Origin: Alphaproteobacteria bacterium
Lineage (GTDB): Bacteria; Pseudomonadota; Alphaproteobacteria; MPNO01; UBA2964
Reading direction: 5' to 3'
DNA length: 64,000 nt
Assembly: GCA_009377375.1 (NCBI GenBank)
Contig: WHUE01000002.1
Location: 33,350 to 97,349 of the forward strand
Within the stretch, counting starts at the first letter, position 1; every line of letters starts with the position of its first letter. This document shows positions 23,485-48,983 of the stretch, piece after piece. The position numbers and the translations under genes are program-made. The notes under the pieces were generated by a model that did not search any database, was not told the DNA's origin, and saw only the letters and a list, made by a program, of their open reading frames with translations.

Positions 23485-23727
23485 CCGCCGGCAGGTCGGC
23501 GGGTTCCGCCCGGCCGGCCGCCTACGTGTAACGCGATGAAAAATAATCGAAAAAATGTGTCGGGATATTTTACAGTCGCGCCGGCCGTTAACCAGCGGCG
23601 ACTCGACAAGTCTTTGAAAAACAATGAATTAACCTGTTTGGCACGGTTCTTGCTTTAAAACCTGGTGCGACCTCAAGGACTGGAGTCTTCGGGGATTTTG
23701 GGCTATGTTGATGTGGGGACTGGGACG

Positions 23728-24606
23728 ATGCATGGAAAGCTGATTTCGGCGGTTGCCGGGCTTGCGCTCAGCATCGCGGCGGGGACGACGGCGGCCAAGG
23801 CCACCGAGATCACCTGGAATCTGGGCGGGAGCTGCGCCAGCGGCTATGCCTGCAATTCCACTGCGCGCACGTTCCTGGGCAGCGACGGCAGCACGACCGT
23901 CACCGCGAAGGCCTGGGGCCGCACCCAGAGTTACAACAATACCGAGTTCGAAAGCGCCTATCTCGGGCATTATTCCGGCAACGGCCTCGGCGTCACCAAC
24001 GACGAGGAGCCGAGCTACAGCCCGCATCACGCGGTCGACAATAACGATCGCTACGACATCGTCAGCTTCTTCTTCAGCGAGACGGTGGATATGCTGAGCG
24101 CATTCCTGGTGGCCTATGGCGACACCGACATCTCGGTGTGGATCAGCAATGTCGAGGTCATGCCGGATCTGACGGGCGAGACGATCACCGATCTCGACAA
24201 CATGTTCGGCGACCATTTCGACAACTACGGCGACTACAGCAACCGGACCGCCTATTTCGGCGCCGGCGGCGAGAGCGGGACCGAGGGCAACTTCCTGATC
24301 ATCGGGGCCAAGATCGGCAACAGCAACGACGACTTCAAGCTCAAGGCGCTGGCCGCCTCCTACACGGTCGAGGAACCGCCGGTTCCGGACACCGACGTTC
24401 CGGCCCCGGGCACGCTCTCCGTCTTCGGCCTCGGCGTGCTGGGCTTCATCGGGCTGCGCCGCCGCAACGCCCGTCGCGCGGACGGCCGCGCCGTCTCCAC
24501 CCGGACCCTGTTCGCCGGCCTGAAGGCCCTCGTCGCCCGCGCCAACAACGCCTTCGCGCTGGCCAGCGTCTCGAATGAGGGCTTCTTTCCGGTTCGCGCG
24601 CGCTGA
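23728..24606 (+). CDS. secreted protein with PEP-CTERM-like sorting signal (VPAP-TM-RRRNARR) near the C-terminus
   Basis: Signal peptide (MHGKLISAVAGLALSIAAGTTAA) and an Asp/Gly/Asn-rich body. VPAPGTLSVFGLGVLGFIGLRRRNARR matches the PEP-CTERM architecture (motif, TM, basic cluster) but is followed by about 40 more residues. AT-rich promoter region upstream. Confidence 0.6.
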   Translation: MHGKLISAVAGLALSIAAGTTAAKATEITWNLGGSCASGYACNSTARTFLGSDGSTTVTAKAWGRTQSYNNTEFESAYLGHYSGNGLGVTNDEEPSYSPHHAVDNNDRYDIVSFFFSETVDMLSAFLVAYGDTDISVWISNVEVMPDLTGETITDLDNMFGDHFDNYGDYSNRTAYFGAGGESGTEGNFLIIGAKIGNSNDDFKLKALAASYTVEEPPVPDTDVPAPGTLSVFGLGVLGFIGLRRRNARRADGRAVSTRTLFAGLKALVARANNAFALASVSNEGFFPVRAR

Positions 24607-24698: not shown

Positions 24699-25466
24699 TC
24701 AGAACAGCCCGCTGTCCCGCGCCGCGCGCCACAGCAGCCGGAGCGCCAGCGCCGTCACCACCACCTGGAAGACGACCCGGAAGCCCTTCTCCGGCATGCG
24801 CGACAGCAGCCGGCTGCCGATCCAGTTGCCGAGCGTGGCCGAGGCGATCATCGCCAGCATCAGCGGCAGGTACGCGTGCAGCGCCACTCCCAGCAGTCCG
24901 AACGCCGCCAGCTTGGCGGTATGGACGATGGTCATCAGCGCGGCGAAGGTGGCGGCGTGGTTGCGCCTGTCCGGGCTGGACCCGGCGACGAAGGGCGCGA
25001 TCAGCGTGCCGGTGGCGCTGACGAACATGCCGAGAAAGGTGGCGCCGAACCCGATCGCGGCGAAACGGTTGCGGTCGCCGCCCATCCGCGTCAGTCCCGG
25101 CATCCAGGTCATCACGATGATGAAGCCGCCCAGGATGGCCTGCAGCGTCGCGGTGGACAGGCTGACGAACACCTGCGCCCCCAGCGCGGCGCCCAGCACC
25201 GATCCGACGAGGAAGGGCAGCACCGTCCAGCGCATCACCCAGGACCACATGATCGCCACCCGGGTCGCCCCGGCGCCCATCTGCACCACCGTATGCACGG
25301 GGATCAGCACCGCCGGGGGAAACACCAGGCTGAGCAGCGACAGCAGCAGCAGCCCGCCGGCGGAGCCCGTCACGATCCCCAGCGCCGCCGTGCCCACCGG
25401 CGCCAGCGTCAGCGCGGCGAAGGTCAGCATCGAGACGTCGGGGACGCCGAGAAACGAGGTTTCCAT
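24699..25466 (-). CDS. TauE/SafE-family sulfite/anion exporter (DUF81)
   Basis: About 8 TM helices and the internal repeat typical of the TauE/SafE family. ATG at 25466; the ORF track starts at an upstream TTG. Confidence 0.75.
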   Translation of the reverse strand: METSFLGVPDVSMLTFAALTLAPVGTAALGIVTGSAGGLLLLSLLSLVFPPAVLIPVHTVVQMGAGATRVAIMWSWVMRWTVLPFLVGSVLGAALGAQVFVSLSTATLQAILGGFIIVMTWMPGLTRMGGDRNRFAAIGFGATFLGMFVSATGTLIAPFVAGSSPDRRNHAATFAALMTIVHTAKLAAFGLLGVALHAYLPLMLAMIASATLGNWIGSRLLSRMPEKGFRVVFQVVVTALALRLLWRAARDSGLF

Positions 25467-25650
25467 CAGCTCTGACCGGGTTGGGGGCAAATGGCGCGCA
25501 CCGCGCGGCTGCGGCGGGCCGTATAAGGTTTCTACCCCGCCCGCCGCGCCGCCGCCACCCGCCGACGCGCATTATCGAAAAACGGGACGTTTGAGCCCGA
25601 TTTTCGGCTTTGTGCGCCCCGAGGCGGCGGATAGACTGCGACAGACCGCC

Positions 25651-25675
25651 GGGCATAACCGGGCATAACCGGAAC
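25651..25675 (+). repeat. tandem 10-bp repeat (GGGCATAACC x2 plus a partial copy) upstream of tctC
   Basis: gggcataacc gggcataacc ggaaccgg sits about 30 bp upstream of the tctC ATG at 25706 and its AGGGAGG RBS. Confidence 0.4.
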
Positions 25676-25705
25676 CGGCTTCGCACTGTCTTCAGGGAGG
25701 AACCC

Positions 25706-26743
25706 ATGACCGTCACTACATTCCGCCGCGGCGCGGCGGCAGCCGTGCTTGCCGCCGCCATGCTGACCGCGGCCCCGGCCGGGGCCGACGCCGTCTCCGA
25801 TTTCTATACCGGCAAGCAGGTCACCTGGATCGTGTCCTACGGCGCGGGCGGCAGCTACGGCCGCTACACCCAGATCGGCGCACGCCATCTCGGCAGGTTC
25901 CTGCCGGGGAATCCGGCGGTCACGGTCCAGTACATGCCCGGCGCCGGCGGCATCAAGGCGACCAACTACCTCTACAACGCCGCCCCGAAGGACGGCGGCA
26001 TGCTTGGCACCGTGACCAAGGATCTCGCCCTCGAACAGGCGCTGCGTCCGGAAAAGGCCAAGTACGACGCCCGCAAGTTCAGTTGGGTCGGCAGCTTCGC
26101 CGAGTACATCGCGGTCATCGCGGTGTGGTCGGCTTCCGGCGTCAAGACCATTGAGGACGCGAAGACGCGCAGCGTCATCATGGCGACCAGCGGCCGCGGC
26201 CATCAGGGCTCGCAGCTCGCCGTGCTGCTGAACGAATACGCCGGCACCAGGTTCAGGCTGGTGACCGGCTACCGCGGCGCGAAGGACATGAACCTGGCGA
26301 TGGAGCAGGGTGAGGCGCAGATGCGCATCAGCTCGTGGAGCGGTTTCAAGAGCCAGCAGGGCGACTGGCTGCGCGACGGCAAGGCCGCGGTGCTGGCCCA
26401 GGGCGGCAGCAAGCGCCAGCCCGACCTGCAGAACGCCTCCCTGTTCATCGACCTGGTGAAGGACCCGGAAGGCCGCAAGGTGCTCGCCATCGTGGAATCC
26501 GGCTCCAGCGTCGGCTGGCCCGCGCTGATGCCGCCCGACGTGCCCGCCGACCGGCTTGCGGCGATGCGCAAGGCGTTCGATGAGATGACGAAGGACAAGG
26601 CCTTCATCGCCGAGGTCGAGAAGAGCAAGCTGGAGGTCGCCCCGAAATCCGGCGCGGAACTCGCCAAGGTCATCGACGAGGTGCTGTCGGCTGACGAGAA
26701 GGTGCTGGCCCGCGCCCGCGCCATCGCCGGCATCAAGCCGTAG
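25706..26743 (+). CDS. tripartite tricarboxylate transporter substrate-binding protein (TctC/Bug family), orphan
   Basis: Signal peptide; conserved Bug-family signature (VSYGAGGSYGRY..PGAGGIKATNY). No adjacent tctAB genes. Confidence 0.8.
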   Translation: MTVTTFRRGAAAAVLAAAMLTAAPAGADAVSDFYTGKQVTWIVSYGAGGSYGRYTQIGARHLGRFLPGNPAVTVQYMPGAGGIKATNYLYNAAPKDGGMLGTVTKDLALEQALRPEKAKYDARKFSWVGSFAEYIAVIAVWSASGVKTIEDAKTRSVIMATSGRGHQGSQLAVLLNEYAGTRFRLVTGYRGAKDMNLAMEQGEAQMRISSWSGFKSQQGDWLRDGKAAVLAQGGSKRQPDLQNASLFIDLVKDPEGRKVLAIVESGSSVGWPALMPPDVPADRLAAMRKAFDEMTKDKAFIAEVEKSKLEVAPKSGAELAKVIDEVLSADEKVLARARAIAGIKP

Positions 26744-26827: not shown

Positions 26828-27811
26828 ATGGCCACGTCCTATCGCACCCCGCCCGAAACCATGAAGGCGGAGCTCGATGCGCTCTACGCCCGGCTCGACC
26901 CGCTTTATCTCGACCCCGGCTTCCGGGTGATGGACGTCTCCATCTGGAAGGAGCCGAAGAAGGCGCTGGAGCCCGCCATCTGGAAATGGTCGGAGGGACG
27001 CGAGGCGCTGTCGGAGCTCGCCCGCGTCATCGGCACCGAGCACGCGGAGCGCCGCAACCTGATCATGCGCAACCCGGCCGAGGGCCATGTCTACGGCACG
27101 CTGCGCACCATGATCAGCGCCTACCAGCTCATGCTGCCGGGCGAATTCGCCCGCTCGCACTGGCATTCGCCGCACGCGCTGAGGGTGATCCTCGAGGGCG
27201 CGGGCAGCTATACCGTCGTCAACGGCGTGCGCATCGACATGCATCCGGGCGACGTGGTGCTGACCCCCGGCGGCGACTGGCACTGGCACGGAGTGGACGG
27301 CAGCGCGCCCTGCGCCTGGCTCGACATCCTCGACCGGCCGCTGACCATCATGCTGGAGCCGCTGTTCCAGGACTATCATCCGGACGGGCACGAGCCGATG
27401 CGCAACGCCGACCCTGACTCGCCGCTGCTGTTTTCCTGGGCCGATACCGTGGCGCGGCTGGACGGCGCCGCGCGCGATGCCGGCGGCTGCTTCGGCGCGC
27501 GGATCGAGTTGGGCGGGGCCGCGCCCGCCCTGCCGACGCTGGCGCTGCACATGCAGCGCCTGGCGGCGGGGGAGAGGACGACGCGGTTCCGGTCCTCGGC
27601 GAACTACCTGTACTTGCCGCTGGAAGGCGAGGGGCGGTCGGTCGTCGACGGCAAGGTGCTGGACTGGGCGCGGGGCGATGTGTTCGTGGTGCCCTGCTGG
27701 CGTCCGGTGGAGCACGAGGCGTCGTCCGACGCGATCCTGTTCTCCGCCACCGACGAGCCGTTGCAGCGCGCCTGCGGCTATCTGCGCGAGGAGCGCGGCC
27801 TGCCGGGCTGA
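26828..27811 (+). CDS. bicupin protein, gentisate 1,2-dioxygenase-like
   Basis: Two cupin modules with metal-ligand-like His clusters (HWHSPHALRV.., GDWHWHG). Convergent with senA. Confidence 0.6.
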   Translation: MATSYRTPPETMKAELDALYARLDPLYLDPGFRVMDVSIWKEPKKALEPAIWKWSEGREALSELARVIGTEHAERRNLIMRNPAEGHVYGTLRTMISAYQLMLPGEFARSHWHSPHALRVILEGAGSYTVVNGVRIDMHPGDVVLTPGGDWHWHGVDGSAPCAWLDILDRPLTIMLEPLFQDYHPDGHEPMRNADPDSPLLFSWADTVARLDGAARDAGGCFGARIELGGAAPALPTLALHMQRLAAGERTTRFRSSANYLYLPLEGEGRSVVDGKVLDWARGDVFVVPCWRPVEHEASSDAILFSATDEPLQRACGYLREERGLPG

Positions 27812-27826: not shown

Positions 27827-29131
27827 CTACAGGGCGCAGGTGCGGAACCCGGAGAAGATGTCCCTCCGCGTCGGCTCGAAGAAGTTGCGGTAGGTGCCGG
27901 TGACCATGCGGCTCCGCGTCGTCCAGGCACCGCCCCGCAGCACCATGGTCGACCCGAAAAGCGGCTCGGAATACTCTCTGTAATCGTCGGGCGCGAAGCC
28001 GGGGAACGGCCGGAACGTGTCCGACGTCCATTCCCAGGCGTTACCCAGCATCTGCCGGCAGCCCCAGGCGTTGTCCCCCGCCTCGTGCGCCGCCACGCTC
28101 ACGCAGCCCAGCGCGAACCCGTCGAGATTGGCGTGCGCGGCGGTGGGCGCCGCGTCTCCCCACGGGTAGCGCGTCTTGACGAGCGCGCCGTGCGCGCCGG
28201 GGCGCATGGTCGCCGCGAACTCCCACTCCGCCTCGCCCGGCAGGCGCCGGCCGGCCCAACGGCACCAGGCGTCGGCCTCGTACCAGTTGACGTGGATCGC
28301 CGGCTCGTCCTCCTCCAGCGGCATCCACCGGTCGAAGCGGCGCGCCCGCCAGCCGCCGCCGGATTCCGGCTTCCAGTAAACGGGATGCTCCGCCCCGGCC
28401 TGCCCGCGCCAGCGCCAGCCGTCCTCGGACCAGAGGGCGCGGCGCCGGTAGCCGCCGTCCTCGACGAATGCCGCGAATTCGCGGTTGGTCACCGGCGCCC
28501 GCGCCATGCGAAACGGCGCGACGGTCGCCTCATGGGTCCATTTCTCGTTGTCGAACAGGAAAGGCGCATCGGGGGCGGAGCCGAGCGGGAAGACGCCGCC
28601 CGGTATCGCGGCGTCTCCGGAAAGCCCGCCGCGCTCCGGCACATGAGACCCGCCCGACCCGTCCGCGGCGAATTCCGGCGTCGGATAGGCGAGCGTCTGG
28701 CGGGTCCAGAGGAACGCCTCGTCGTGCATGTCCTCGTGAAAGGTGGTGAACTGGTAGAGATAGCTGTCGCGCTCGTCCGCCATGCCGGCCGGCAAACGGT
28801 CGAGCAGGGTGTCCTGGACGCGCTGCATGTAGTCGAGCAGTTCGCCGAGAGGATAGAGCGGGAGGTCCCAGCGCGTCTCGTGCGCGATCGCGATCGAGTC
28901 GTAGAGCGCGTCGCCGCGTTCCAGCAACGGCGCATGGCCATGCTCGCGGCGCAGGATGAAGTGCTCGTGGAACCAGGCGACGTGACCGATCTCCCACAGC
29001 ATCGGATTGACGGCGGCGAGCTTCGGCCCGATAAGCTGATCTTGTGTCAGCCCGGCCAGAAGCTCTAACGTGCGCTGCCGCGCGCTTTCCATCATCGCGG
29101 CCAGCCGGTCTGCAGTTACGGGTGTCGTCAT
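27827..29131 (-). CDS. senA: EgtB-family sulfoxide/selenoxide synthase (DinB_2 plus FGE-sulfatase domains); by gene context selenoneine synthase SenA
   Basis: N-terminal DinB_2 metal-binding domain (WEIGHVAWFHEHF..HEDMHDE) and C-terminal FGE-like domain (NAWEWT..RGGAW). 434 aa. Placed next to a GT-like gene and selD, as in described sen clusters. Confidence 0.75.
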   Translation of the reverse strand: MTTPVTADRLAAMMESARQRTLELLAGLTQDQLIGPKLAAVNPMLWEIGHVAWFHEHFILRREHGHAPLLERGDALYDSIAIAHETRWDLPLYPLGELLDYMQRVQDTLLDRLPAGMADERDSYLYQFTTFHEDMHDEAFLWTRQTLAYPTPEFAADGSGGSHVPERGGLSGDAAIPGGVFPLGSAPDAPFLFDNEKWTHEATVAPFRMARAPVTNREFAAFVEDGGYRRRALWSEDGWRWRGQAGAEHPVYWKPESGGGWRARRFDRWMPLEEDEPAIHVNWYEADAWCRWAGRRLPGEAEWEFAATMRPGAHGALVKTRYPWGDAAPTAAHANLDGFALGCVSVAAHEAGDNAWGCRQMLGNAWEWTSDTFRPFPGFAPDDYREYSEPLFGSTMVLRGGAWTTRSRMVTGTYRNFFEPTRRDIFSGFRTCAL

Positions 29132-29154
29132 GTCCTCGCGCTCTTTGCCGTTCC

Positions 29155-30132
29155 GTGAAGATTAGTCTCGTCACCCCGGCCGGAAAACAGTCGCGCGCCG
29201 GAAATCGCACCACCGCGGTCCGCTGGGCGCGCATCCTGCGCGCCCTCGGCCAGCGCGTCGCGATCTCGGAAGCGGACGAGACCGTCGACGCCGACATGAT
29301 GGTGGCAGTTCATGCCTGGCGCAGCGCACCCTCTATCCGGGCCTTCGCCGAGCGCCATCCCTCACGGCCGCTGGTGGTGCTGCTCGCCGGCACCGACATC
29401 TACCGCTTCCAGCACAGCAATCCGAACGAGACGCTCGCCTCGATGGAGCGGGCGACGGCGCTGGTCTGCCTGCACGATCTCGTCCACCGCGACATCCCGC
29501 GCCGCTTCGCGTCGAAGCTTCGGGTCATCCGCCAGTCGGCGTCGCCGCTGAGCGCGCCGCGGGCGCCGTCGCGGCGCGCCTTCGAAGTCTGCGTCGCGGG
29601 CCATCTGCGCGAGGAGAAGGATTCGCTGCGCGCCGCGCTCGCCGCCCGCCTGGTGCCGGTGGACTCCCGCCTGCGCGTCGTCCATCTCGGCAAGGCGCAC
29701 GACGAGAGCTGGGCGCGCGCCGCGGCGGCGGAGATGGAGCGCAACCGCCGCTACCTCTGGCGCGGCGAGGTGCCCGGCTGGCAGGTGCGCCGCCAGTTCG
29801 CGCGCAGCCACGCCATGGTCATCAGCTCGGTGATGGAGGGCGGCGCGAACGTCGTCTCGGAAGCCGTTGTGGCCGGCCTGCCGGTGGTCGCATCGCATAT
29901 CGCCGGCAATGTGGGCCTGCTGGGCGACGATTATAACGGCTACTTCCCGCCGGGGGATACCGCCGCGCTGGCGGCGCTGCTGCGCCGGGCGGAGACCGAG
30001 CCCGCCTTCCTGCGCGGTCTCGCCGCGCAATGCCGCAGGCTGCAACCCCTGTTCCGGCCCGCGCGCGAGCAGGCCGCCTGGCGCGGCCTCATGGACGAGC
30101 TCGTCGGCGGCGCCTTCAGGGCCGGATGCTGA
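29155..30132 (+). CDS. senB: GT-B fold glycosyltransferase-like protein; by context selenosugar synthase SenB
   Basis: C-terminal GT1/GT4-like nucleotide-sugar binding region (HAMVISSVMEGGANVVSEAVVAGLPVVAS). Start is uncertain: the GTG at 29155 is only 23 bp from the divergent senA start; the ORF track begins at 29044 and overlaps senA. Confidence 0.6.
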   Translation: MKISLVTPAGKQSRAGNRTTAVRWARILRALGQRVAISEADETVDADMMVAVHAWRSAPSIRAFAERHPSRPLVVLLAGTDIYRFQHSNPNETLASMERATALVCLHDLVHRDIPRRFASKLRVIRQSASPLSAPRAPSRRAFEVCVAGHLREEKDSLRAALAARLVPVDSRLRVVHLGKAHDESWARAAAAEMERNRRYLWRGEVPGWQVRRQFARSHAMVISSVMEGGANVVSEAVVAGLPVVASHIAGNVGLLGDDYNGYFPPGDTAALAALLRRAETEPAFLRGLAAQCRRLQPLFRPAREQAAWRGLMDELVGGAFRAGC

Positions 30133-32383
30133 CCGGCTCCAGCCGATCGCTCCGGGGCCGGACGCATCCGATGATGGCCGCGCGGCTGTAGCCCATCGCC
30201 CGCAGCTCCTCGACACATCGCTCCGCCTCCGCCTCGGGCACGCTCGCCAGCAGCCCGCCGGCCGTCTGCGGGTCGAAGATCAGCGGGTAGCGCGGATCGC
30301 CGGCGGCCTCGGCCGGATTGGCGATCGCGCGCCGCAGCCGCAGATTCTGCGGCTGCAGCGAGCTCAGGATGCCGGCGCGCACCGTCTCCTCCGCGCCGTC
30401 GAGAAACGGAATGGCGCCGAGATCGAGCTCCACGTCCACCTCGGAGGCGCGGATCATCTCCACCAGGTGGCCGAGCAGCCCGAACCCGGTGACGTCGGTG
30501 CAGGCATGCGCGCCGTGCGCCATCAGGCATTCGGCGCCCTTGCGGTTCGACTGAACCATGGAGTCCAGCGCCGCCGCGATCCAGCGGCCCTTGGCCTTGT
30601 GGCGCATGTCGGCGGCAAACAGCGTGCCGGTGCCGAGCGGCTTGGTCAGCACCAGACGGTCGCCGGGCGCCATGCCCGCCTTGCGCATGACCCTGGCGCG
30701 GTCGATCAGCCCGTTGATCGCGAAGCCGAGCGTCAGCTCCACGCCTTCGCTGGTGTGCCCGCCGACCAGCGCCGCGCCGGCGTCGCGCAGAACCTCCATC
30801 GCGCCGGTCATCATCTGCGTCAGCGTGTCCTCGATCTTCTCCTCGATGCCGAAGGGGATGGTGGCCACCGCGAGCGCGGTCTGCGGCTCGGCGCCCATGG
30901 CGTATATGTCGCCCAGGCTGTGGTTGGCGGCGATCTTGCCGAACAGGTAGGGGTCGTCGATCATCGTGCGGAAGGAATCGACGGTGTGCACCATCGCCTT
31001 GCCCGGCGGCACCTCCACCACGGCCGCGTCGTCCGGCTCGTGCAGCCCGATCAGAACGTCCGCCCGCGGGACCGGCTCGAGGCCGCCCAGGGCGCGTCCC
31101 AGCACAGTGGCCCCCACCTTGGCGCCGCAGCCGCCGCAGCGCATCGCGATGGCGGAAATCTCCTTGATCGCCTCGGCGCTGGCGAGGCCGCGCGGCAGGG
31201 CGGCCGGCGTCTCCTCGGCCATGTCGGGCAGGTCGTTGTACTTGCGCATGAATCGCCGGTCGATCCAGTCCTTCCACAACCACACCCAGCGTCCCTTGAC
31301 CGACCAGTCCCCGCGCCCGGCGACGGCGTAGCGGTCGCCGGTGGTGACCAGGCTGAGAAACTTCTCCTGCGGACGGAACGGGCGGGGCGCGCGTCCCCGC
31401 AGCGCGCGGTCCAGGTTGCGGGCGAGCGGCTTGCCCTGGCGCACGGCGAACACGCCGGATTTGGGGCGCGGGTGGTTCACCATGGAAGCGACATCCCCCG
31501 CAGCGAACACGTCGGCATGCGAGACCGATTGCAGCGTGTCGGAGACCTTGATGAAGCCGTGCGCGTCCACCTCCAGCCCGGCTTCGCCCGGCCAGGACGG
31601 TGCGCCGGCCGCGGTGACCCAGAGTATCTCGTCGGCCTCGATTCCATCGCCGCTCTCCGTGCGCAGCCGGTTGCCGCTGACCTCGACCACGGGCTCGCCC
31701 GCGTGCACGCTGACGCCGCGCGCCCACAGGACCTGCTCGAAGGCGCGCCGCGCGCGCGCATTGTGGGTCGGCAGGATTTCGGGCGAGTCGCTGAACAGGT
31801 CGAACGCGATGTCGTCGGCGGTGCGGCCGGCCTCGCGGCGCAGCGTCGCCAGCCGATACTGGATGGCGAGCAGGATTTCGACCCCGCCGGCGCCGGCGCC
31901 GACGACGGCGATGCGCATCGGCCCGTCGTGGTGCAGGCTGCGCTCGGCCAGGGCCTCCCAGCGATCGAGAAAGCGGTTGATCGGCTTCACCGGGACGGCG
32001 GCCTCGGTCGCACCGGGTACGTCCGACGTCCGCGGGGCGGAACCTGTATTGATCGATAGCACGTCGTAGGGCACGGGCGGGCGGTTGTCGCAGAGAACGC
32101 GCTTGCCCGCCAGGTCGAGCGCCGTCACCTCGCTGTGATAGAAGCGCGCGCCGGCGAAGCGTGCGAGCGCGCCGAGATCGATATGGGCGTCGTCGAAGCT
32201 GTAATGCCCCGCCACGTAGCCGGGCAGCATGCCCGAATAGGGCGTGTGCACGTCGCGGCAGATCAGCGTGAGCCGGACGCCCGGCACCGGCTTCATGCCG
32301 AAACGTTTGAGAACGGCGACATGGCTGTGCCCGCCGCCGGCGAGAACGAGGTCCTTAACGATGGGAGTATTGTCGTTTTTCAT
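30116..32383 (-). CDS. selD: fusion protein: N-terminal FAD/NAD(P)-binding pyridine nucleotide-disulfide oxidoreductase domain plus C-terminal selenide, water dikinase SelD (SenC role)
   Basis: N-terminus has Rossmann GxGxxG motifs (LVLAGGGHSHVAV.., IAVVGAGAGGVE). The C-terminal half is SelD, with the active-site loop MRCGGCGAKVG (a Cys-type, not Sec-type, enzyme) and the AIR-synthase-like fold. 755 aa. Overlaps the 3' end of senB (convergent). Confidence 0.85.
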   Translation of the reverse strand: MKNDNTPIVKDLVLAGGGHSHVAVLKRFGMKPVPGVRLTLICRDVHTPYSGMLPGYVAGHYSFDDAHIDLGALARFAGARFYHSEVTALDLAGKRVLCDNRPPVPYDVLSINTGSAPRTSDVPGATEAAVPVKPINRFLDRWEALAERSLHHDGPMRIAVVGAGAGGVEILLAIQYRLATLRREAGRTADDIAFDLFSDSPEILPTHNARARRAFEQVLWARGVSVHAGEPVVEVSGNRLRTESGDGIEADEILWVTAAGAPSWPGEAGLEVDAHGFIKVSDTLQSVSHADVFAAGDVASMVNHPRPKSGVFAVRQGKPLARNLDRALRGRAPRPFRPQEKFLSLVTTGDRYAVAGRGDWSVKGRWVWLWKDWIDRRFMRKYNDLPDMAEETPAALPRGLASAEAIKEISAIAMRCGGCGAKVGATVLGRALGGLEPVPRADVLIGLHEPDDAAVVEVPPGKAMVHTVDSFRTMIDDPYLFGKIAANHSLGDIYAMGAEPQTALAVATIPFGIEEKIEDTLTQMMTGAMEVLRDAGAALVGGHTSEGVELTLGFAINGLIDRARVMRKAGMAPGDRLVLTKPLGTGTLFAADMRHKAKGRWIAAALDSMVQSNRKGAECLMAHGAHACTDVTGFGLLGHLVEMIRASEVDVELDLGAIPFLDGAEETVRAGILSSLQPQNLRLRRAIANPAEAAGDPRYPLIFDPQTAGGLLASVPEAEAERCVEELRAMGYSRAAIIGCVRPRSDRLEPVSIRP

Positions 32384-32387
32384 GGCC

Positions 32388-33875
32388 TCAACGGTGTTTC
32401 AGCGTCGTCTGCAGGCGGAGCCGCGCGCGGATGGCGCGGGAGATCGCGTCGACGCATATGTTCAGCATGGCGGTGATCAGGATGAGGAACAGCGCGCGGT
32501 CGAAACGCAAATCGGCAAAGGCACTGTCCACGTAAAAGCCCAGCGTCGCGATTCCGAGTATGCCGAGTATCGCCGTCTCGCGCAGGATCACCTCCCAGCG
32601 GTAGAATAGCAGAGCCATCATCGGCCGGTAGATGCGGGGCGAGACCTCGTATACGTAGCGGTCGATTCCGCGCGACGCATCGGGACGCAGCTTCACGGTC
32701 TCGGTGAACCGGCCGATCAGGTGGCCGATAATGGCCCCGTTGTGCAGCGACAGCGCCACTATGGCCGGCAGCATCGACGGCCCCCAAAGCTGCAGCAGGA
32801 CGAAGGCAAGAATATATTCCGGCGTCGAGCGGACAACGACGAGGAAGACGTGACCGGCCCCCCGCGCCCACCGGCCGAGCAGCAGGGGCGAGACCAGCGG
32901 GAAGAAGAACATCGTGAGCACGCCCGTCGCGACCAGGGCGACCATGGTGAGCTGAATCGTCGCGGCGGCCCCGGGCAGGGCCTGCTCGAAGAGCATCAGA
33001 TGCAGCCAGTCGCCGAGCGCCGCCAGCGTGTCGCCCCCCGGCGCGCGCAGCGGATAAGGAACGATGTCATGGGTGAAGAAGCGGAGCATATTGGCAGCGG
33101 AGACGGTGAGCCCCCAGGGCAGGATCGCCGCCGCCGCGACCAGCCAGACCGGCAGCAGCGGCTTCCGCATCCACAGCCGCATGCTGGCGATGACGACGTA
33201 GAACAGGATCAGCAGCGCCGAGACCTCGGAATAGCGCCCCTGGCTGAACGACGATTCGAGATGGAACCCGAGCGTCGGCAGCCCCACGAATCCGAGCACG
33301 GCGCTCGAGCGCAGCCCGCATTCGAGCCGGTACATCGAATAGGTCCGGAAATGCGCCCACGCATCCGGCAGGCGGGCGAACAGGAAGGTGGAGATGAGTC
33401 CGCTGCCGAGCGGGACGGCGCGCAGCGGAGCGGGGTCCGCCTCCTCGAGTATTTCCGCATAGACCTTGGCGATGATGCCGGCATAGGGGATGCCGATCGC
33501 GAGGATGCCGGTCAGCGGCGACAGGCCGAAGATCTGCAGGAAGATGAGCGCCCAGAACAGCTCGTGGATCGCCCGCACGAAGGCGCAGCCGGTGCGCACG
33601 ATCCGGCTGAAGAACAGCAGCGCGAGACCGAAGCCGAGCACGTTGCCGAACGCGACGCCGAGCAGCGCGAAGGCGAGCGTGTAGGCAAGCGCGCTCCCCA
33701 GATTGTCGGTGGCGTAGAAATCGGGCGTGACGACGCCCGCGAGCAGGCGCACCAGTTCCTGGTACGGATTGACCGTGGTGACGGCCAGATCGGCGAACAG
33801 CGCGCAGACCAGCGCGACCGCGACGAACGCGAGCGTCGTGCGGGCCAGCGGCGAGGCTTCGCGCAGGCTGGCCAT
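32388..33875 (-). CDS. fused tandem PhnE-like ABC transporter permease (two permease modules in one chain)
   Basis: 495 aa with about 12 TM helices and two PhnE-like permease repeats. Its stop lies 4 nt from the senC start and its ATG overlaps the upstream ATPase stop (TGATG). Confidence 0.75.
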   Translation of the reverse strand: MASLREASPLARTTLAFVAVALVCALFADLAVTTVNPYQELVRLLAGVVTPDFYATDNLGSALAYTLAFALLGVAFGNVLGFGLALLFFSRIVRTGCAFVRAIHELFWALIFLQIFGLSPLTGILAIGIPYAGIIAKVYAEILEEADPAPLRAVPLGSGLISTFLFARLPDAWAHFRTYSMYRLECGLRSSAVLGFVGLPTLGFHLESSFSQGRYSEVSALLILFYVVIASMRLWMRKPLLPVWLVAAAAILPWGLTVSAANMLRFFTHDIVPYPLRAPGGDTLAALGDWLHLMLFEQALPGAAATIQLTMVALVATGVLTMFFFPLVSPLLLGRWARGAGHVFLVVVRSTPEYILAFVLLQLWGPSMLPAIVALSLHNGAIIGHLIGRFTETVKLRPDASRGIDRYVYEVSPRIYRPMMALLFYRWEVILRETAILGILGIATLGFYVDSAFADLRFDRALFLILITAMLNICVDAISRAIRARLRLQTTLKHR

Positions 33876-34537
33876 CAGCCGGCCGGTCGGTACAGGTGAT
33901 CGAGGTCGTCCGGTTTCATGCCCGCGGCCGGCTCGTCGAGGACGATCCGCCCGTTCCTCAGCCCGACGAGCCGGTCGGCGAAGGCGATCGCCAGCGCCCG
34001 GTCGTGCATCGCGAGGACGACCGTGCGCTTTTCGCCGTTCATCGTCTCCAGAATCTCGCGCGCCTGGTGTTCGTCCACGGCGGAAACCGGCTCGTCGGCG
34101 ATGAGGATTTCGCCGGGGTGATAGAGCGCGCGGCCGACTGCCGTGCGCTGCTGCTGGCCTCCCGAGAGCTCGCCGACCGCGGCGAACAGCTTGTCCTCGA
34201 GGCGGAGTTGGGAGAGCACGGCCCCGACCTCCCTGACCTCCGCCGGGGCCGGGCGGACGAGATTGCGCAGGTTTCGCCACGTCGAATGCCGGTGCAGCCG
34301 TCCCATATAGACGTTGTGGAAGACGGTCAGCGACTGGACGAGGCCGAGTTCCTGCGGCACCAGCGCCGCACCGTTCCGGCAACGCTCGTAGGCGAGGCGC
34401 AGGAGCGTCGACTTGCCCGCCCCGCTCTCGCCGACGACCGCTACCTTCTCGCCGGGCTCGATCCTGAGCGTGATCCCCTCGAGGATCGCCGTGCCGCCGT
34501 AGCCGGCGGTCTCGTCGCGGAAGTCGATCAGCGCCAT
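33875..34537 (-). CDS. PhnC-like ABC transporter ATP-binding protein
   Basis: Walker A GESGAGKST, signature LSGGQQQR, Walker B LIADEP. Translationally coupled on both sides. Confidence 0.8.
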   Translation of the reverse strand: MALIDFRDETAGYGGTAILEGITLRIEPGEKVAVVGESGAGKSTLLRLAYERCRNGAALVPQELGLVQSLTVFHNVYMGRLHRHSTWRNLRNLVRPAPAEVREVGAVLSQLRLEDKLFAAVGELSGGQQQRTAVGRALYHPGEILIADEPVSAVDEHQAREILETMNGEKRTVVLAMHDRALAIAFADRLVGLRNGRIVLDEPAAGMKPDDLDHLYRPAG

Positions 34538-35424
34538 CAGTCGATCAGGCCGAGCGACCGCGCCGTCTTCCGGATCGGCTCGTAGTCCGAGTTCTCGGCC
34601 GGGATGAAAGCGGAACGGGGGAATGAGTCGAGCAGGTCGGGATCCTTCATCGAAAGCAGCGCAGCCTTTACCCTTTGCGCGAAGCCGTTGCCGTAGCGCT
34701 CGTCCACGTCGCCCCGGATGGTCCACTGATAGTCGGGATAGGGCGGGGTGCGCCAGATCACGCGTACGCGCTTCGGATCGATCTTGCCGTCCTTCAGCTC
34801 CCGCTCCCACACCGCGAAATTGACCGCGCCCACCTGGTACGCCCCGGTCTGGACCAGCGCGAGCGTTCGCGAGTGATCGCCGCTGAAGCCTACCCGGCTG
34901 AAGATTTCCTCCGGCGCCTTGCCGAAGGCTTCGCGGATATGGAACTCGGGCATCAGCCGGCCCGAGGTCGATCCCTTGGAGCCGAAGGTGAAGGTCTTGC
35001 CCGCCATCTCCTTCGGCAAGCTCTTCGATTCGGAGAGCCCGGTGCTCTCATGGGCGATGAAGTAGGTCACGAAGGCGCGATCCTCCGCACCCTGTGCGAG
35101 CGCCCGGGAACCCGGCACCATGGCGCGGGCCCGCACCCCGGAGAGCCCGCCGAACCAGGCGAGCTGAACCTGGCCGTTGCGGAACGCCGTCACCGCCGCG
35201 GCGTAGGACTTGACCGGGATGTAGCGCGTCTCGACGCCGAGCGTCCGCGCGAGGTAGCGCGCGACCTTGTCGAACCGCGTGCGCAGCTGGCTCGCGTCCT
35301 CATCGGGAATGGCCGTGAAGACAAACGGTTCCGCCTGCGCCGCGCCCGCTCCGGGCAGGAGCCCCGACAGCGCCCCGAGGACGGCGTATATCGCCGCGAC
35401 CGAACGAATTCTCATGGTCATCAT
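34537..35424 (-). CDS. PhnD/SsuA-like periplasmic substrate-binding protein (phosphonate/phosphite-type)
   Basis: Signal peptide (MRIRSVAAIYAVLGALSGLLPGAGAAQA), then a PhnD-family fold (FTAIPDED..YIPVKSYAA..FGSKGSTSG). First gene of the SBP-ATPase-permease-senC string. Confidence 0.75.
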   Translation of the reverse strand: MMTMRIRSVAAIYAVLGALSGLLPGAGAAQAEPFVFTAIPDEDASQLRTRFDKVARYLARTLGVETRYIPVKSYAAAVTAFRNGQVQLAWFGGLSGVRARAMVPGSRALAQGAEDRAFVTYFIAHESTGLSESKSLPKEMAGKTFTFGSKGSTSGRLMPEFHIREAFGKAPEEIFSRVGFSGDHSRTLALVQTGAYQVGAVNFAVWERELKDGKIDPKRVRVIWRTPPYPDYQWTIRGDVDERYGNGFAQRVKAALLSMKDPDLLDSFPRSAFIPAENSDYEPIRKTARSLGLID

Positions 35425-36125
35425 GGTGCACCTTTCCTGTCCGACAGCCGGATGTCCCCCGGGCCCGCGCAAAGGCGGCTCGCCGGCGAATTCCTGCAAA
35501 CCGGCACGACGGATGACATCCCGTGACCCGAACGTAGCGCCACAGGAGGAAACCCGCAAAGGGAGGGAGCACAGCCGTGGACGGCGCGGCAGGCGGCTTC
35601 GACGTTTTACGCGAACCCGGCAACCGGGTCATGGCGGCGGTGGGCGCCGCCGCTGCGCCCGCGCCGGCCCTCAGCGTCGTTCGGGCGACGGGCATAGCCG
35701 CATCGGCACCGGCTTCTGGAAGCCGGGAAGGCACACCGGCCGCATCTCGCATTGGGCCGGGGCGGCGGGTATGGCGGCGCCGGTTTCCGTCGCATCCGGG
35801 CCTTCGCCGTCGGCGGCATCGGCAAGCGCGGTGCGGCATTCTTCCGAGATTTCCGTCTCGGAGACGCGGAGCGCTTCGGCGATCGTGGGATCGTAGCGGC
35901 CGTTCTGAGCGGAGGATTCCGGGCCGCCGGCCGCGTATTGCCGAGTTTCGGCGCATCCCCCGACCCGTCGATCAGCCCGGCGCCCGCCATCAGGGCCAGC
36001 GGGAGACAGCCGGCGGTCGTGCCGGCGCACAGCAGCATCGCGAAGATTGCACGGAGGCCGGGCGCGACCGGCGGCGGGTGGCGCACCAGACCGGATGTCG
36101 CGCCCGGCGGCATCTTTCCGCGCCG

Positions 36126-36689
36126 TCAGCGGAGATGGCTGAGCCCGCGCCGTTCCGTCATCTCGCGCCAGATCGCGGCCATGTCGGGCTGCATGAGCCG
36201 CTTCCGGGCCCAGGGGAAGAAGGTCTGTTCCTCCCAGTCCATATGCTGGCGGACCAGCTCTTCGGCACGGATGAGATTGACCGAAAACGTGGCCGGCATG
36301 ATGGGAATGACGCCTCCCATCAGAGCGCACAGCCTCTCCTCGATATCCGTCACCGCGTGCCGTATGAGGTCGTGATTCTGCCCCAGCGTCGTCTGCATGC
36401 GGCGCGCCGTCTCCGTCGCCCCCTGGCGGGCCAGCAGCCGCGGCATCAGGGAGTATTCCTCGTCATCCACGCGGAGCGGCCATTCCTCCTTGAAGAACGA
36501 GAGCACGGAATGGGCGTAGCACTCCCTGCCGCGTTGCCAGAGATCGTCGGCCAGAATGGACATCATCCCCGCCACGATGCGAACTCTCTCCTGCTCCTGA
36601 AGCAGCAGATCTATCGGCTCCCTGCTCGTCGCCGCCGAGCGGCGGGAAGAGGTGCCGTCTTCGAAGCATTCCTGCTGGCCCGAAATCAT
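36126..36689 (-). CDS. hemerythrin-like (HHE cation-binding) domain protein
   Basis: Repeated H-x3-E motifs (HSVLSFFKEE, HAVTDIEE, HMDWEE). 187 aa. Confidence 0.5.
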   Translation of the reverse strand: MISGQQECFEDGTSSRRSAATSREPIDLLLQEQERVRIVAGMMSILADDLWQRGRECYAHSVLSFFKEEWPLRVDDEEYSLMPRLLARQGATETARRMQTTLGQNHDLIRHAVTDIEERLCALMGGVIPIMPATFSVNLIRAEELVRQHMDWEEQTFFPWARKRLMQPDMAAIWREMTERRGLSHLR

Positions 36690-36899
36690 TTTGCCCCCCG
36701 TCTTTGCATGGCTCCGCGTCCCGGCGGAGCGTGCGCCGACTGTGGCATGACCTCACCATACAGAGAAGACTTCAAAAGAATGCATATATAGATATTTCTG
36801 ACTATAACCTATCCGTTGGTAGTAGTACTGAACCACAATATTAATAATAAATGACGTTATATACGATCACCGTGCCTGATTTCATGACGGGGCACGGAT

Positions 36900-39693: not shown

Positions 39694-40066
39694 TTGAAAA
39701 TGTCGGTATCGAGCGATGTCATGCCCGCGAGGCTGTCCGTCTCCCCAACCCGCCGAACTCAGCGGGACGCCATCCGCAGGAGGCGGACCTGCGCAGCGGT
39801 CGTTCTCGCCTTTGCAGCCGTCCTCGGCCGATCCGGCGAAGGCATTCGAGTGGTACCGCCGCGCCGCCGTCGGCGGCGAAGCAAGGGCGCAATACAATAT
39901 CGGCCTTCTGTATCTGAGCGGAAAGGGCGTGGTCGCCGATCCGGTCCAGGCCGTCAAGTGGCTGGTTCTCGCTGCCTCCACAGCGGCGGGATCCCGACAT
40001 CAGGCGAAAGGCGCAGGCCACGCTGAACGGGATTTCACCCGCGCTGAAATCCGGCGATTTCCATGA
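39694..40066 (+). pseudogene. degraded Sel1-repeat (TPR-like) protein gene, frameshifted
   Basis: A signal-peptide-like N-terminus is in frame 39694 (RRRRTCAAVVLAFAAVLG) while Sel1 repeat units are in frame 39716 (AKAFEWYRRAAVGGEARAQYNIGLLYLSGKGV..AVKWLVLAA). The repeats decay after about 1.5 units. Confidence 0.3.
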
Positions 40067-40379
40067 AGGAGCCCAGGCCGCAAGGCTCTGGCTGGTGCGC
40101 CGGCAATGGACGAGCCGCTCGGCCGGGCGGAGCGGGGGCTGAGTCCGACTGCCCGCCGGCGGATCGCCGCGTCGCGGCCGTCGACTGTTCGGGGCGACGC
40201 GGAGGAAAGCGGGCGGGACGCCGATCCGGTCCTGTCCGCGCGAGGGGCGGCGCCTGAAGACCGGGCCGGCGGCCCCGACCCATAGCCCGTCCGGCTTCGG
40301 TGCTGTCCCTCGCACGCCGCGCCGCATTGCGGGCGGCGCGGTCTTGTTCCGTTTTCCCCGTTCCGTCCGCGCGGCAAGT

Positions 40380-40959
40380 ACAACCGTTGGTGATGCCGCC
40401 TGTCCACCATTTTTATGACAGGATTTTCTTGACAATCCTGATCTTTAAGTCTGCCTATAATATATATAATAATTTTTAATAAATATATACTCGAACATTT
40501 ATGTAATAAGTCATTTTAATCGAAGCATATCATGCTGTGACACAGATTTATCACAGACAAGAACCTTCCTCCTCCCCCATATGTGACCTAATGTAAGGCG
40601 GCTCGTGACATCTCGTGACATATCGTAAGTCCGATGGGCGGTATGGCGCGACTGGCTGCGGCCTCCCCCGTCGGAAGGTCAGGCGGATCTGTAAGAAGGA
40701 TTAGTCCCGATAGAGACATTAATCATTAAGCTTAGAGGAATACCCATTTTCCGTTCTCTTTAATAATCATCTTTAAGGTTAAACAATTATTTGTAGGGAC
40801 GCGTATTTTGGCTCTGTAAGAATTTGTGGTTAATCCTTCATGCTTGGTCCAATTTTGTAATGAGGCGCAAATCGGTGGTCGGCATGTTAAGTCTGCCGAA
40901 TCACGGGGCAAGACTCGGCGAATCCGATGATTCGTAAGAGTCGTATCAGAGGGTTGATC
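40380..40959. other. about 580-bp AT-rich intergenic tract (under ~40% GC in a ~68% GC genome) upstream of the LuxR-type regulator and the polysaccharide locus
   Basis: Runs such as taatatatataataatttttaataaatatatac; contains the 10-bp tandem repeat CTCGTGACAT x2 (40602-40621) and TGTGACACAG..TATCACAGAC (40536-40559). Confidence 0.6.
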
Positions 40960-41631
40960 ATGGCTATCCAGGAAGACTGCGCGCTGCGCGCAATGATTGT
41001 AGACCATAACCGCCTGTACCGGGCCGGTCTGAAGCTGACGCTGGAATCCGCGAATGTCAGGGTGGTTGCCGAAGGAGACGATCTCAAGGCTCTCATGGCC
41101 GGCTCGGATGAGGCCGGCGGCGACATCCTGCTGCTGAAGCTGCCGAGGGCGGCCGCCGTGGCGGAGGCGCTGGGAAACGCAAGACAGGCGTTTCCCGCCG
41201 CCAAGCTGGTGGTGATTGCGGATGCCAATCTGAATTCCGATGCGATGGTGACGGCGATTCAGGCGGGCGCGGACGGCGTCCTGCTGTCCGAGCTCTCTCC
41301 GGATGTGTTCCTGCAGTCGCTGCGTCTGGTCCGTCTGGGCGAGAAGGTCCTGCCTGCGCAGCTCGCCCGGATGCTCATCGGGGGCGACGCCCGTGTCTCG
41401 CATATGCCGAGCCAGATGCGTCAGCTGGGACTGTCGGCGCGGGAGATGGAAATCCTCCGGCTTCTGGTCGACGGCAGTTCGAACAAGGGCATTGCACGAC
41501 GCCTCGACATCGCGGAGGCAACCGTGAAGGTGCATGTCAAGGCCGTGCTGCGGAAGATCCAGGTGACGAACAGGACTCAGGCCGCGGTCTGGGCGCTCAA
41601 CCACGGGGTGGCCTGCGAGCAGGAGGCCTGA
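40960..41631 (+). CDS. LuxR/FixJ/NarL-family response regulator (receiver plus C-terminal LuxR HTH)
   Basis: C-terminal LuxR-type HTH (LSAREMEILRLLVDGSSNKGIARRLDIAEATVKVHVKAVLRKI) and an N-terminal receiver-like domain with an atypical acidic pocket. ATG at 40960 after a GAGGG RBS. Confidence 0.75.
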   Translation: MAIQEDCALRAMIVDHNRLYRAGLKLTLESANVRVVAEGDDLKALMAGSDEAGGDILLLKLPRAAAVAEALGNARQAFPAAKLVVIADANLNSDAMVTAIQAGADGVLLSELSPDVFLQSLRLVRLGEKVLPAQLARMLIGGDARVSHMPSQMRQLGLSAREMEILRLLVDGSSNKGIARRLDIAEATVKVHVKAVLRKIQVTNRTQAAVWALNHGVACEQEA

Positions 41632-47353: not shown

Positions 47354-48808
47354 TCAGCGCGCCGCGGCCATCGTCTTGATCGTGCTCAGCGCGAAACGCT
47401 GAAGCGTCGGGCTCAGAATCCGGATCGCGATCCAGTAGACCAGCATCCCGACGGCGACGTCGAGCGAGAGCGCCGCCAACGCGCCGACCTTGCCGGAAAG
47501 CCACCGATCCGCGCCGAACACTGCTGCCCCCATGATCAGGCTGGCCGCCGCCGGCACATAGACGGGCTGCAGTAGCCAGGCGGCTCCGACGCCGAGCAGG
47601 CGGCGCAGAAGGAGCACGTGGACGGGCATCCAGGCAAAGGCCTTGCACACCCAGAACGCCGCCACCCAGACCACCGGCTCATGACGGAGCGCCAGGATGC
47701 CGGCGATCGTCAGCACGAGGTCCACGGCCATGAGGTACAGCACCCAGTCCGCGCGGCCCTTCGCGCGGTAGCACGCCGTGAAGAACATGGCGAAGAAGAC
47801 CGGGATGAAGTGCAGCGCGAGCCAGGCGAGGATCGGGACGCTCGCGGCCCACTTTGCGCCGTAAAACGCGACGATCAGGTGAGGCGCCACCAGGGCGAGG
47901 CCGATGCCGAGGGGGAGGCCGACCAGGCAGCTGAGCTGCGTGGCCTGCAGAAAGCTCGACCGCAGCGCCTCGCTGTTGTCCTGCAGGCGGGAGAACATGC
48001 TGAACCCGACCTGGTAGAGCGCGCTCGCGATCAGGGACCGCAGAAGCTGCATGGTCCGCCAGGCGATGTTGAAATAGCCGAGCACGACCGGCCCGTACAG
48101 AATGCCGAGCATCAGGTTGACCGCCTGCTCGGCGATGCCGGAGATCAGCTGGCCGGCCGAGACATGCAGGCCGAACCCGGCCATCGAACGAAAGCACGAC
48201 GTCGAGAAGCGAAGGCGCGGCATCCACCGGTACACCAGCGCCAGCGCGGCGTTCGTCGTCACCGCCGCGGCCAGCTGCTGTCCCACGAGGCTCCATGCGC
48301 CGCCGCCCAGAGCCGCCATCGTCAGCCCCACGACGGCGCCCGCCGTGCGGCCGACCAATGTCGCTCCCGCGACGTCGCGGAACCGGAGGTCGCGCCGAAG
48401 CATCGCCGTCTGCACGCTGCCCATCGCATTCAACGGCAGGATCAGGGCAAGCCAGTGCAGAATATCGGTGACCGCCGGCTCGCCTGTGATTCGGGCGATC
48501 GTGCCCGCGCCCGATGCCGTGGCGGCGGCCAGGAGAAGGGCGATGGCCAGCGTGCTCCAGAACGCGGTGTGGACATGATCGGGGCCGATCTCCCGCGCTT
48601 GCACCAAGGCGTCGGGAAAGCCATGGCCGATGACCAGGTTGAGCATCAGCACGACGGCGCCGGCCATGGCGACGATGCCGAAATCGACCGGCTCCAGGAG
48701 CCGGGCCATTCCGAGAAACGCGATCAGCGAGATGACGGCCGCGCCGGTACTCTCCGAAAGCGCCCAGAAGACGCTCCCCAGGCTGCGGTGTTTCAGACTT
48801 TCAGCCAT
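47354..48808 (-). CDS. wzx: polysaccharide/O-antigen flippase Wzx (MOP/PST superfamily)
   Basis: 484 aa with about 12-14 TM helices, typical of the Wzx/PST 'polysaccharide biosynthesis protein' family. Confidence 0.75.
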   Translation of the reverse strand: MAESLKHRSLGSVFWALSESTGAAVISLIAFLGMARLLEPVDFGIVAMAGAVVLMLNLVIGHGFPDALVQAREIGPDHVHTAFWSTLAIALLLAAATASGAGTIARITGEPAVTDILHWLALILPLNAMGSVQTAMLRRDLRFRDVAGATLVGRTAGAVVGLTMAALGGGAWSLVGQQLAAAVTTNAALALVYRWMPRLRFSTSCFRSMAGFGLHVSAGQLISGIAEQAVNLMLGILYGPVVLGYFNIAWRTMQLLRSLIASALYQVGFSMFSRLQDNSEALRSSFLQATQLSCLVGLPLGIGLALVAPHLIVAFYGAKWAASVPILAWLALHFIPVFFAMFFTACYRAKGRADWVLYLMAVDLVLTIAGILALRHEPVVWVAAFWVCKAFAWMPVHVLLLRRLLGVGAAWLLQPVYVPAAASLIMGAAVFGADRWLSGKVGALAALSLDVAVGMLVYWIAIRILSPTLQRFALSTIKTMAAAR

Positions 48809-48960: not shown

Positions 48961-48983
48961 GAAGTTTCTGTGAAACCGGTACC

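Follow-up and report, generated by a model that had tools for sequence, protein, structure and literature searches.

A fusion of an NADH dehydrogenase-like flavoprotein to selenophosphate synthetase (SelD), termed Ndh-SelD, was described together with its CxxC motif by Zhang et al. (2008, PMC2398784), who suggested that SelD receives a selenium compound reduced by the flavoprotein. In ocean metagenomes, Ndh-SelD was estimated to account for about 40% of the Cys-type SelD proteins, and it is abundant among bacteria of oxic marine and aquatic habitats (PMC2398784); it is by far the most common SelD fusion (Mariotti et al. 2015, PMC4561486), and its NCBI name is 'bifunctional NADH dehydrogenase FAD-containing subunit/selenide, water dikinase SelD'. 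The present analysis concerns a gene of this type, senC, in a 64,000-nucleotide stretch of a contig from an uncultured alphaproteobacterium (WHUE01000002.1, positions 33,350 to 97,349; the whole stretch is called the window below). SenC, a protein of 755 amino acids (aa) encoded at 30116-32383 on the minus strand, resembles the described fusions (COG1252-SelD; TIGR03169 plus TIGR00476) in its domain order, its CxxC, its use of Cys rather than selenocysteine (Sec) and its length of about 750 aa. No structural difference from other Ndh-SelD proteins was seen; the gene is distinguished by being the SelD gene of a cluster (sen) for selenoneine, a selenium antioxidant, and the last gene of an importer operon, a setting that is not discussed in the fusion literature found (PMC2398784, PMC4561486).

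The reading proposed here, to which we give a probability of roughly one half, is that electrons would pass from NAD(P)H through flavin adenine dinucleotide (FAD) to selenium held on the Cys416/Cys419 loop of the SelD half, the selenium coming from an imported oxyanion, and that the selenide formed would go to the ATP site. The first-pass annotation of this locus had likewise suggested that the N-terminal domain reduces oxidised selenium for SelD, which restates the proposal of Zhang et al. (2008) and is plausible, with partial support from the genomic context. Neither the architecture nor the reductase hypothesis is new, as both were published in 2008, and the sen cluster has been known since 2022; the window adds a clean example and a sharper mechanism, in which the CxxC loop would be the redox partner of the flavin. 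It is still unsettled where selenophosphate synthetase obtains reduced selenium in the cell and how this is separated from sulfur; a NAD(P)H flavoprotein-SelD in one operon with an importer, beside enzymes that consume selenophosphate, is a compact system in which to study that step. Such a system would not surprise a selenium specialist but is well suited to experiments on where SelD gets its selenide. A literature search found no biochemical work on the fused flavoprotein domain, in agreement with what the first-pass annotation had said of such fusions, or on the importer (TIGR04553).

Two further systems bear comparison. The SenC of Variovorax paradoxus makes selenophosphate for SenB in vitro, and a putative selenate transporter lies near many sen clusters (Kayrouz et al. 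2022, bioRxiv 10.1101/2022.04.13.486033). Like the window protein, that SenC serves as the SelD of a sen cluster alongside SenB and SenA, and it is the only SenC assayed so far; in contrast, it is a single-domain SelD whose loop reads HGGGCGCK, with no upstream Cys and hence no CxxC. It was assayed only with Na2Se and dithiothreitol (bioRxiv 10.1101/2022.04.13.486033), so that any reductive step was bypassed. The published SenC assays found thus used an unfused enzyme and chemical selenide, and for the engineering of selenoneine or ovoselenol production a fused SenC might let hosts work from selenite. Fusions of NifS to SelD (PMC4561486, PMC2398784), present in Geobacter sp. FRC-32, Naegleria and Acanthamoeba, also place a selenium-supplying enzyme N-terminal to the mobile Cys/Sec loop of SelD, but their partner is a pyridoxal phosphate-dependent enzyme of the selenocysteine lyase type that draws selenium from selenocysteine, not from an oxidised species.

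Domain structure of SenC

The senC open reading frame (ORF) is complete from ATG to stop, and its GC content at the three codon positions (0.71/0.49/0.91) follows the coding pattern usual in this window of ~70% GC. Its start and length are backed by many homologues of 751-755 aa, the best of which is 95% identical, and by independent gene calls on two related contigs (L086 and L087). It is a real gene rather than a chance ORF; the first-pass annotation had given the same boundaries and no strand. Pfam places Pyr_redox_2 at residues 11-317 (E 1e-26), AIRS at 451-559 and AIRS_C at 573-744. Domain boundaries were mapped with hidden Markov models (HMMs), a check that the first-pass annotation had suggested, and fell at residues 11-382 for the flavoprotein (31238-32353; all features of SenC lie on the minus strand), which scores 498.5 bits against NCBIfam TIGR03169 'Nterm_to_SelD' (cut-off 310), and at residues 414-719 for selD (TIGR00476, 307.6 bits, cut-off 125). 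Residues 384-413 (31145-31234), which separate the two HMM envelopes, form a linker that includes a helix (403-413) and has a predicted local distance difference test (pLDDT) score of about 71-77, and the SelD domain as a whole occupies residues 414-755 (30119-31144), matching Protein Data Bank (PDB) entries 3u0o at 1.3e-49 and 2yye at 9e-43. An AlphaFold2 model of the whole protein, built on 44 aligned sequences and used for pLDDT and secondary structure, has a mean pLDDT of 84.7 and a predicted TM (template modelling) score, pTM, of 0.86 for the two-domain chain. The model TIGR04369 'oxidoreductase/SelD-related fusion protein' (fusion_not_SelD) was considered and rejected: it shares the two-domain layout and matches along the full length (14-736), but at 487.2 bits SenC is below its cut-off of 700, and the C-terminal half of SenC differs in passing the true SelD model and keeping the catalytic residues.

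The nearest PDB sequences to the N-terminal half are B. subtilis YjlD (9pxk, 1e-22), type II NADH dehydrogenase (NDH-2) of C. thermarum (4nwz, 7e-19) and NDH-2 of S. aureus; FSP1 and the sulfide:quinone reductases (SQRs) are far weaker matches, the latter at an E value of only about 1e-5. Foldseek likewise ranks YjlD (target-normalised TM 0.88), 4NWZ (0.83) and S. aureus NDH-2 (5NA1, 0.82-0.84) first, so the domain has the two-Rossmann flavoprotein fold of the NDH-2 type (TM 0.82-0.88), and the second-best class is SQR at about 0.75, one entry being the selenide complex 3sz0. Both Rossmann motifs named in the first-pass annotation are in place, GGGHSH (residues 16-21) and GAGAGG (162-167). Among 44 homologues, down to about 58% identity, G16, G17, G18, H19 and H21 of the FAD-binding motif G16-G-G-H-S-H21 (32321-32338) are invariant, as are G162, G164, A165, G166 and E169 of the NAD(P)H-binding motif G162-A-G-A-G-G-V-E169 (31877-31900) and the second FAD-binding 'GD' motif, G296-D297 (31493-31498). 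With all these motifs invariant, the domain is likely to be an active enzyme that binds FAD and NAD(P)H. A catalytically inert appendage, serving as a scaffold or as an oligomerisation or regulatory domain, would agree with the full activity of unfused SelD and SenC in vitro and with the fact that SelD needs no flavin; it is scarcely credible in view of the unchanged cofactor motifs and the about 90 positions of the domain that are invariant over the same range, a degree of constraint unlike that of a decayed enzyme. The Glu that ends the NAD(P)H-domain beta-strand in NDH-2 (lvEa/nvEa) is replaced by S, T, D or N in the fusion family, a substitution that would be compatible with use of NADPH or with dual specificity.

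Beyond the fold, SenC shares with NDH-2 (YjlD, 4NWZ, 5NA1) the two GxGxxG-type motifs, the GD motif and a K..ID.R helix, at 20-25% identity. That helix is Trp-rich and spans residues 365-383 (RWVWLWKDWIDRRFMRKYN, 31235-31291) of the AlphaFold2 model; W368, K371, W373, I374 and D375 are invariant, and K371/I374/D375/R377 correspond in the alignment to K376/I379/D380/R382 of 4NWZ, the NDH-2 of C. thermarum. One might therefore see in the domain a true type II NADH:quinone oxidoreductase, or suppose that through this helix it only tethers SelD to the membrane by the importer, since NDH-2 is the best match by both sequence and fold and the helix is amphipathic. This is quite unlikely: the AQxAxQ segment, which we take to be the quinone-site motif of NDH-2, is invariant here in a different form (K308-S-G-V-F-A-V-R-Q-G, against T-A-Q-I-A-I-Q-H-G in 4NWZ), and of the C-terminal anchor the Trp-rich helix is retained, the hydrophobic remainder having given way to an acidic linker to SelD. 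With the beta-strand Glu mentioned above, these are the three points at which the domain departs from NDH-2. Nor would a quinone reductase or tether give any reason for the coupling of CxxC to the fusion that is described below.

Glutathione reductase and thioredoxin reductase act on selenodiglutathione or selenite by passing electrons from NADPH through FAD to a dithiol that reduces S-Se bonds, with release of selenide, and for this they have a CxxxxC or CxxC of their own beside the flavin, plus a dimerisation domain. The chemistry proposed for SenC is alike, but its flavoprotein domain has neither a Cys pair of its own nor a dimerisation domain and does not belong to that class. In 80 fused relatives (the best 80 loci, from species-representative genomes), residues 1-400 hold no CxxxxC and no invariant Cys; the only Cys of the domain are C42 (conserved in 84% of the 80 species) and C98 (98%), which form no invariant pair; the model places them in beta-strands (36-42 and 95-98) that in this fold presumably lie away from the flavin. 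A classical disulfide reductase (glutathione reductase, thioredoxin reductase, LipDH or MerA) was accordingly rejected, with no Pyr_redox_dim match and with scores far under the cut-offs of the MerA and LipDH models. Of the first-pass assignment to the FAD/NAD(P)-dependent disulfide oxidoreductases, the NDH-2-type flavoprotein with its invariant motifs stands, and the disulfide reductase in the classical sense does not.

An oxidase like SQR, which would oxidise selenide or sulfide (to quinone or NAD(P)+) and so load Se(0) perselenide on SelD or remove sulfide, comes to mind from the second rank of SQR in the structural comparison, with the selenide complex among the matches, and from a weak match to the seleno-type SQR model NF049943. 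SQRs are not known to use their second Rossmann motif for NAD(P)H; in SenC that motif is invariant and looks NAD(P)H-competent. The equivalents of the catalytic Cys of SQR are not conserved, and every SQR-type HMM score is far under its cut-off, so that identity as an SQR was rejected and such an oxidase is very unlikely.

In the C-terminal half, alignment with E. coli SelD (3u0o) equates C419 with Cys17, K422 with Lys20, and D452, D469, N487, D492 and D630 with D51, D68, N87, D91 and D227, which we take to be metal- and ATP-binding residues, and Foldseek matches this half to the SelD of A. aeolicus and E. coli. With its catalytic residues kept, it is apparently a complete and competent SelD, as the first-pass annotation had held. 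The active-site loop C416-G-G-C419-G-A-K422 (31118-31138) carries a CxxC, in a motif of the RCGGCG[AS]K type, that is present in all 80 fused homologues, as RCGGCGAK in 75 and as close variants in 5. Zhang et al. (2008, PMC2398784) reported CxxC in all fusions and in under 5% of single-domain SelD proteins. The pLDDT of residues 416-421 is below 50, and the loop is predicted to be mobile. It follows by about 33 residues the end of the helix equivalent to the acceptor-pocket (quinone) helix of NDH-2, and for this reason the CxxC, which appears to be the only invariant dithiol of the whole protein, is probably tethered beside the acceptor side of the flavoprotein. C723 (30215-30217), in the C-terminal part of the SelD domain, is also invariant in the 80 fused proteins. 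Homologues of ~390-450 aa were considered as possible Sec-containing variants and rejected: they do not end at an active-site UGA, and what ends them is the edge of a contig, a frameshift or a genuine stop codon behind the flavoprotein domain.

Selenoneine cluster and importer operon

The fusion gene is directly adjoined by genes for SenB and SenA, and on these family matches it is the senC, with the role of SelD, of a selenoneine cluster. The senB gene (29155-30132, plus strand, GTG start) encodes a selenosugar synthase of 325 aa (TIGR04348, 412.3 bits, cut-off 300), and senA (27827-29131, minus strand) a selenoneine synthase of 434 aa with the Pfam domains DinB_2 and FGE-sulfatase (NF041186, 499.2 bits, cut-off 420). 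Judged from this gene content, the SelD half almost certainly works as a selenophosphate synthetase that feeds SenB, whose product SenA makes into selenoneine. The senB and senC genes are convergent, with 3' ends that overlap by 17 nucleotides (nt; 30116-30132), and senA and senB are divergent, with start codons only 23 nt apart (29131-29155), so that their promoters must lie inside neighbouring coding sequence; both arrangements are kept in L086 and L087.

On its other side senC is preceded by three genes of an ABC (ATP-binding cassette) importer, and the four form an operon on the minus strand in the order binding protein, ATPase, permease, senC. The periplasmic binding protein (34537-35424; 295 aa, with signal peptide) matches TIGR04553 'putative selenate ABC transporter substrate-binding protein' at 394.8-395.4 bits (cut-off 250); the ATPase (33875-34537; 220 aa) has the Walker A motif GESGAGKST and the signature LSGGQQQR; and the permease (32388-33875; 495 aa) consists of two PhnE-like halves (TIGR01097 PhnE, two stretches, 208.7 bits). 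The junctions between binding protein and ATPase and between ATPase and permease are both TGATG overlaps, and the permease stop is separated from the senC ATG by a 4-nt gap, with GAGG within; senC is, as these junctions indicate, translationally coupled to the importer. Independent gene calls on L086 and L087 give the same six genes with the same sizes and arrangement (senB of 325 aa in L086; permease of 495 aa and ABC_tran gene of 221 aa in L087). No regulatory RNA, promoter or terminator above background was found around the operon, and the ~700 nt upstream of the binding-protein start (35425-36125) hold no convincing ORF, Rfam match or sigma-70-like promoter; the next gene on the same strand encodes a hemerythrin-domain protein (36126-36752). 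Among about 40 ORFs scanned in the window, no selA, selB, ybbB or egtD (for hercynine supply) was found, and the only tRNA in the window is tRNA-Glu, with no tRNA-Sec.

Relatives of the fusion were sought in 185,579 species genomes and found in at least 587 at species level, out of at least 600 matched stretches. Among the matched genomes, the closest are Rhodospirillaceae/Alphaproteobacteria metagenome-assembled genomes (77-78% identity), the 95% identical protein being a JGI metagenome sequence, and the hosts of the fused form among the matched genomes are mostly aerobic Proteobacteria. Within 10 kb of the fusion gene at the 80 best loci, SenB is encoded at 54, an ABC ATPase at 40, a TIGR04553-type binding protein at 38, a permease at 35 and SenA at 27. 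Three gene arrangements keep the importer near Ndh-SelD, those of the window, of Marinobacter and of the Burkholderiales; the association therefore survives rearrangement. In the Marinobacter loci (L030, L035, L039, L045, L047-L049, L051, L056, L057, L062 and L064), Ndh-SelD is followed by a convergent SenB gene and then the importer, with no SenA, and the Halomonas-group loci (L044, L053 and L060) have Ndh-SelD, convergent SenB and importer with a SenA homologue of only 37-38% identity. The flavoprotein also occurs in a stand-alone form, seen at 8001-9182 of L001-L003 (protein P0072), which is 60% identical, ends at a true stop and has no SelD domain or SelD gene nearby; many proteins of 385-398 aa among the listed homologues resemble it.

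Marinobacter vinifirmus and Halomonas utahensis given selenite make a selenometabolite, ovoselenol, in dependence on SenB and SenC (bioRxiv 10.1101/2024.04.10.588772). Since the Marinobacter and Halomonas loci match these published organisms, the SenC of ovoselenol (ovs) producers appears to be of the fused type, which is not mentioned in that work (bioRxiv 10.1101/2024.04.10.588772).

Candidate route from imported oxyanion to selenophosphate

Taken together, these features suggest the following course for the proposed transfer of electrons to loop-held selenium. The importer that is co-transcribed with senC would bring in an oxidised selenium oxyanion, most plausibly selenite, and the dithiol of Cys416 and Cys419 would react with it, giving a selenotrisulfide or selenopersulfide. 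The N-terminal FAD flavoprotein would take electrons from NAD(P)H, and its flavin would repeatedly reduce the S-Se and S-S bonds on the CxxC loop, until selenide, or perselenide bound to Cys419, is released in the ATP site of SelD and phosphorylated. The loop-held selenium is the most likely recipient of the electrons because the flavoprotein is without a redox-active Cys pair of its own. The importer-coupled context fits a need for reduction, and the mechanism is further supported by the presence of the fused form in the sampled genomes of Marinobacter and Halomonas, two genera that make a selenometabolite from selenite.

The family of the binding protein has a bearing on which oxyanion is imported. 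The window protein is 45% identical to PhnD1 of Synechococcus MITS9220 (PDB 7S6G), and against the TIGR04553 cut-off of 250 bits this PhnD1 scores 334 and that of Prochlorococcus MIT9301 (5LQ5) 297; by these scores, picocyanobacterial PhnD1 belongs to the same family as the window binding protein. PhnD1 binds phosphite most tightly, yet the cells cannot use phosphite, and the binding has been called fortuitous in a paper in which selenium is never mentioned (ISME J 2023, PMC10284923). Cyanobacteria carry the Ndh-SelD fusion. Selenite, a trigonal XO3 anion like phosphite, may be the real ligand of the TIGR04553 family. Selenite is also more plausible than selenate as the species imported in the window, because the flavoprotein could not plausibly reduce selenate and because phosphite, with its trigonal XO3 shape, is the anion favoured by the nearest relatives of the binding protein whose structures are solved.

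The same CxxC lends itself to another explanation, in which the flavoprotein serves redox maintenance only: as a dedicated NAD(P)H:disulfide reductase of aerobic hosts it would re-activate SelD after formation of a Cys416-Cys419 disulfide without itself acting on selenium compounds, and selenide would reach SelD by general thiol chemistry. The strict coupling of CxxC to the fusion and the want of a Cys pair in the flavoprotein would suit such a role, as would the reported abundance of the fusion in oxic waters (PMC2398784) and the mostly aerobic hosts found here. It leaves the repeated linkage to an oxyanion importer unexplained, however, and overlaps with the transfer to loop-held selenium, in that the last step of selenotrisulfide reduction would be reduction of the same disulfide; as a sufficient account of the fusion we consider it unlikely.

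Several points weigh against a route from imported oxyanion to selenide through the flavin. Of the 80 loci, 26 have no gene for SenB or the importer nearby, and their neighbours share no family (in 120 neighbouring ORFs from 22 loci without SenB, no family occurs more than 4 times and none is selenium-related), so that a tie between the fusion and imported oxyanions does not hold throughout. These loci agree with the Sec and selenouridine traits that the fusion is reported to serve as well (Mariotti et al. 2015, PMC4561486). The homologues include stand-alone flavoproteins of about 393 aa that have no SelD gene adjacent; unfused SenC works in sen clusters, so that some hosts can do without the flavoprotein domain; the proteins of solved structure that come closest to the binding protein are binders of phosphite or phosphate; reduction of selenate by such a flavoprotein is not plausible; and the mechanism is read wholly from sequence.

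A more far-reaching version, which we advance tentatively and hold to be somewhat doubtful, is that the flavoprotein half and the CxxC loop together would be a dedicated NAD(P)H-driven selenite/selenotrisulfide reductase that passes selenide straight to the kinase site, with the corollary that picocyanobacterial PhnD1C1E1 would be a selenite importer. If true, the locus would encode a complete pathway, independent of the thiol pool, that covers import, reduction, activation and incorporation, and would show from what source SelD draws its selenide and how the cell separates this from sulfur. The first-pass suggestion that the module is self-sufficient and separate from sulfur metabolism is at this stage speculation.

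Remainder of the window

The rest of the window holds housekeeping genes, among them purA, hisZ, rpoH and rluD, and the cluster is therefore chromosomal. Near senA lie genes for a TauE/SafE-family permease (24699-25490, minus strand), a TctC-like binding protein (25610-26743, plus strand; a weak match) and, adjoining senA, a bicupin resembling gentisate dioxygenase (26828-27811, plus strand). On L086, the metagenome contig with 95% identity, senA is likewise flanked by the bicupin and TctC-like genes, and none of the three was found at the 80 genome loci. A PEP-CTERM protein is encoded at 23665-24606. GC content falls to 0.547 at 40000-41000, against a background of 70%, and ORFs at 36.8-41.8 kb are without the usual codon-position pattern of GC and, where scanned, without family matches; this stretch may be foreign or non-coding DNA. 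Genes of surface-glycan type occupy 47354-59306 and include those for a MOP flippase (47354-48838, minus strand), an FkbH-domain protein (49440-51419), a DltB-like MBOAT protein (51685-53322) and a glycosyl transferase family protein (55832-56935).

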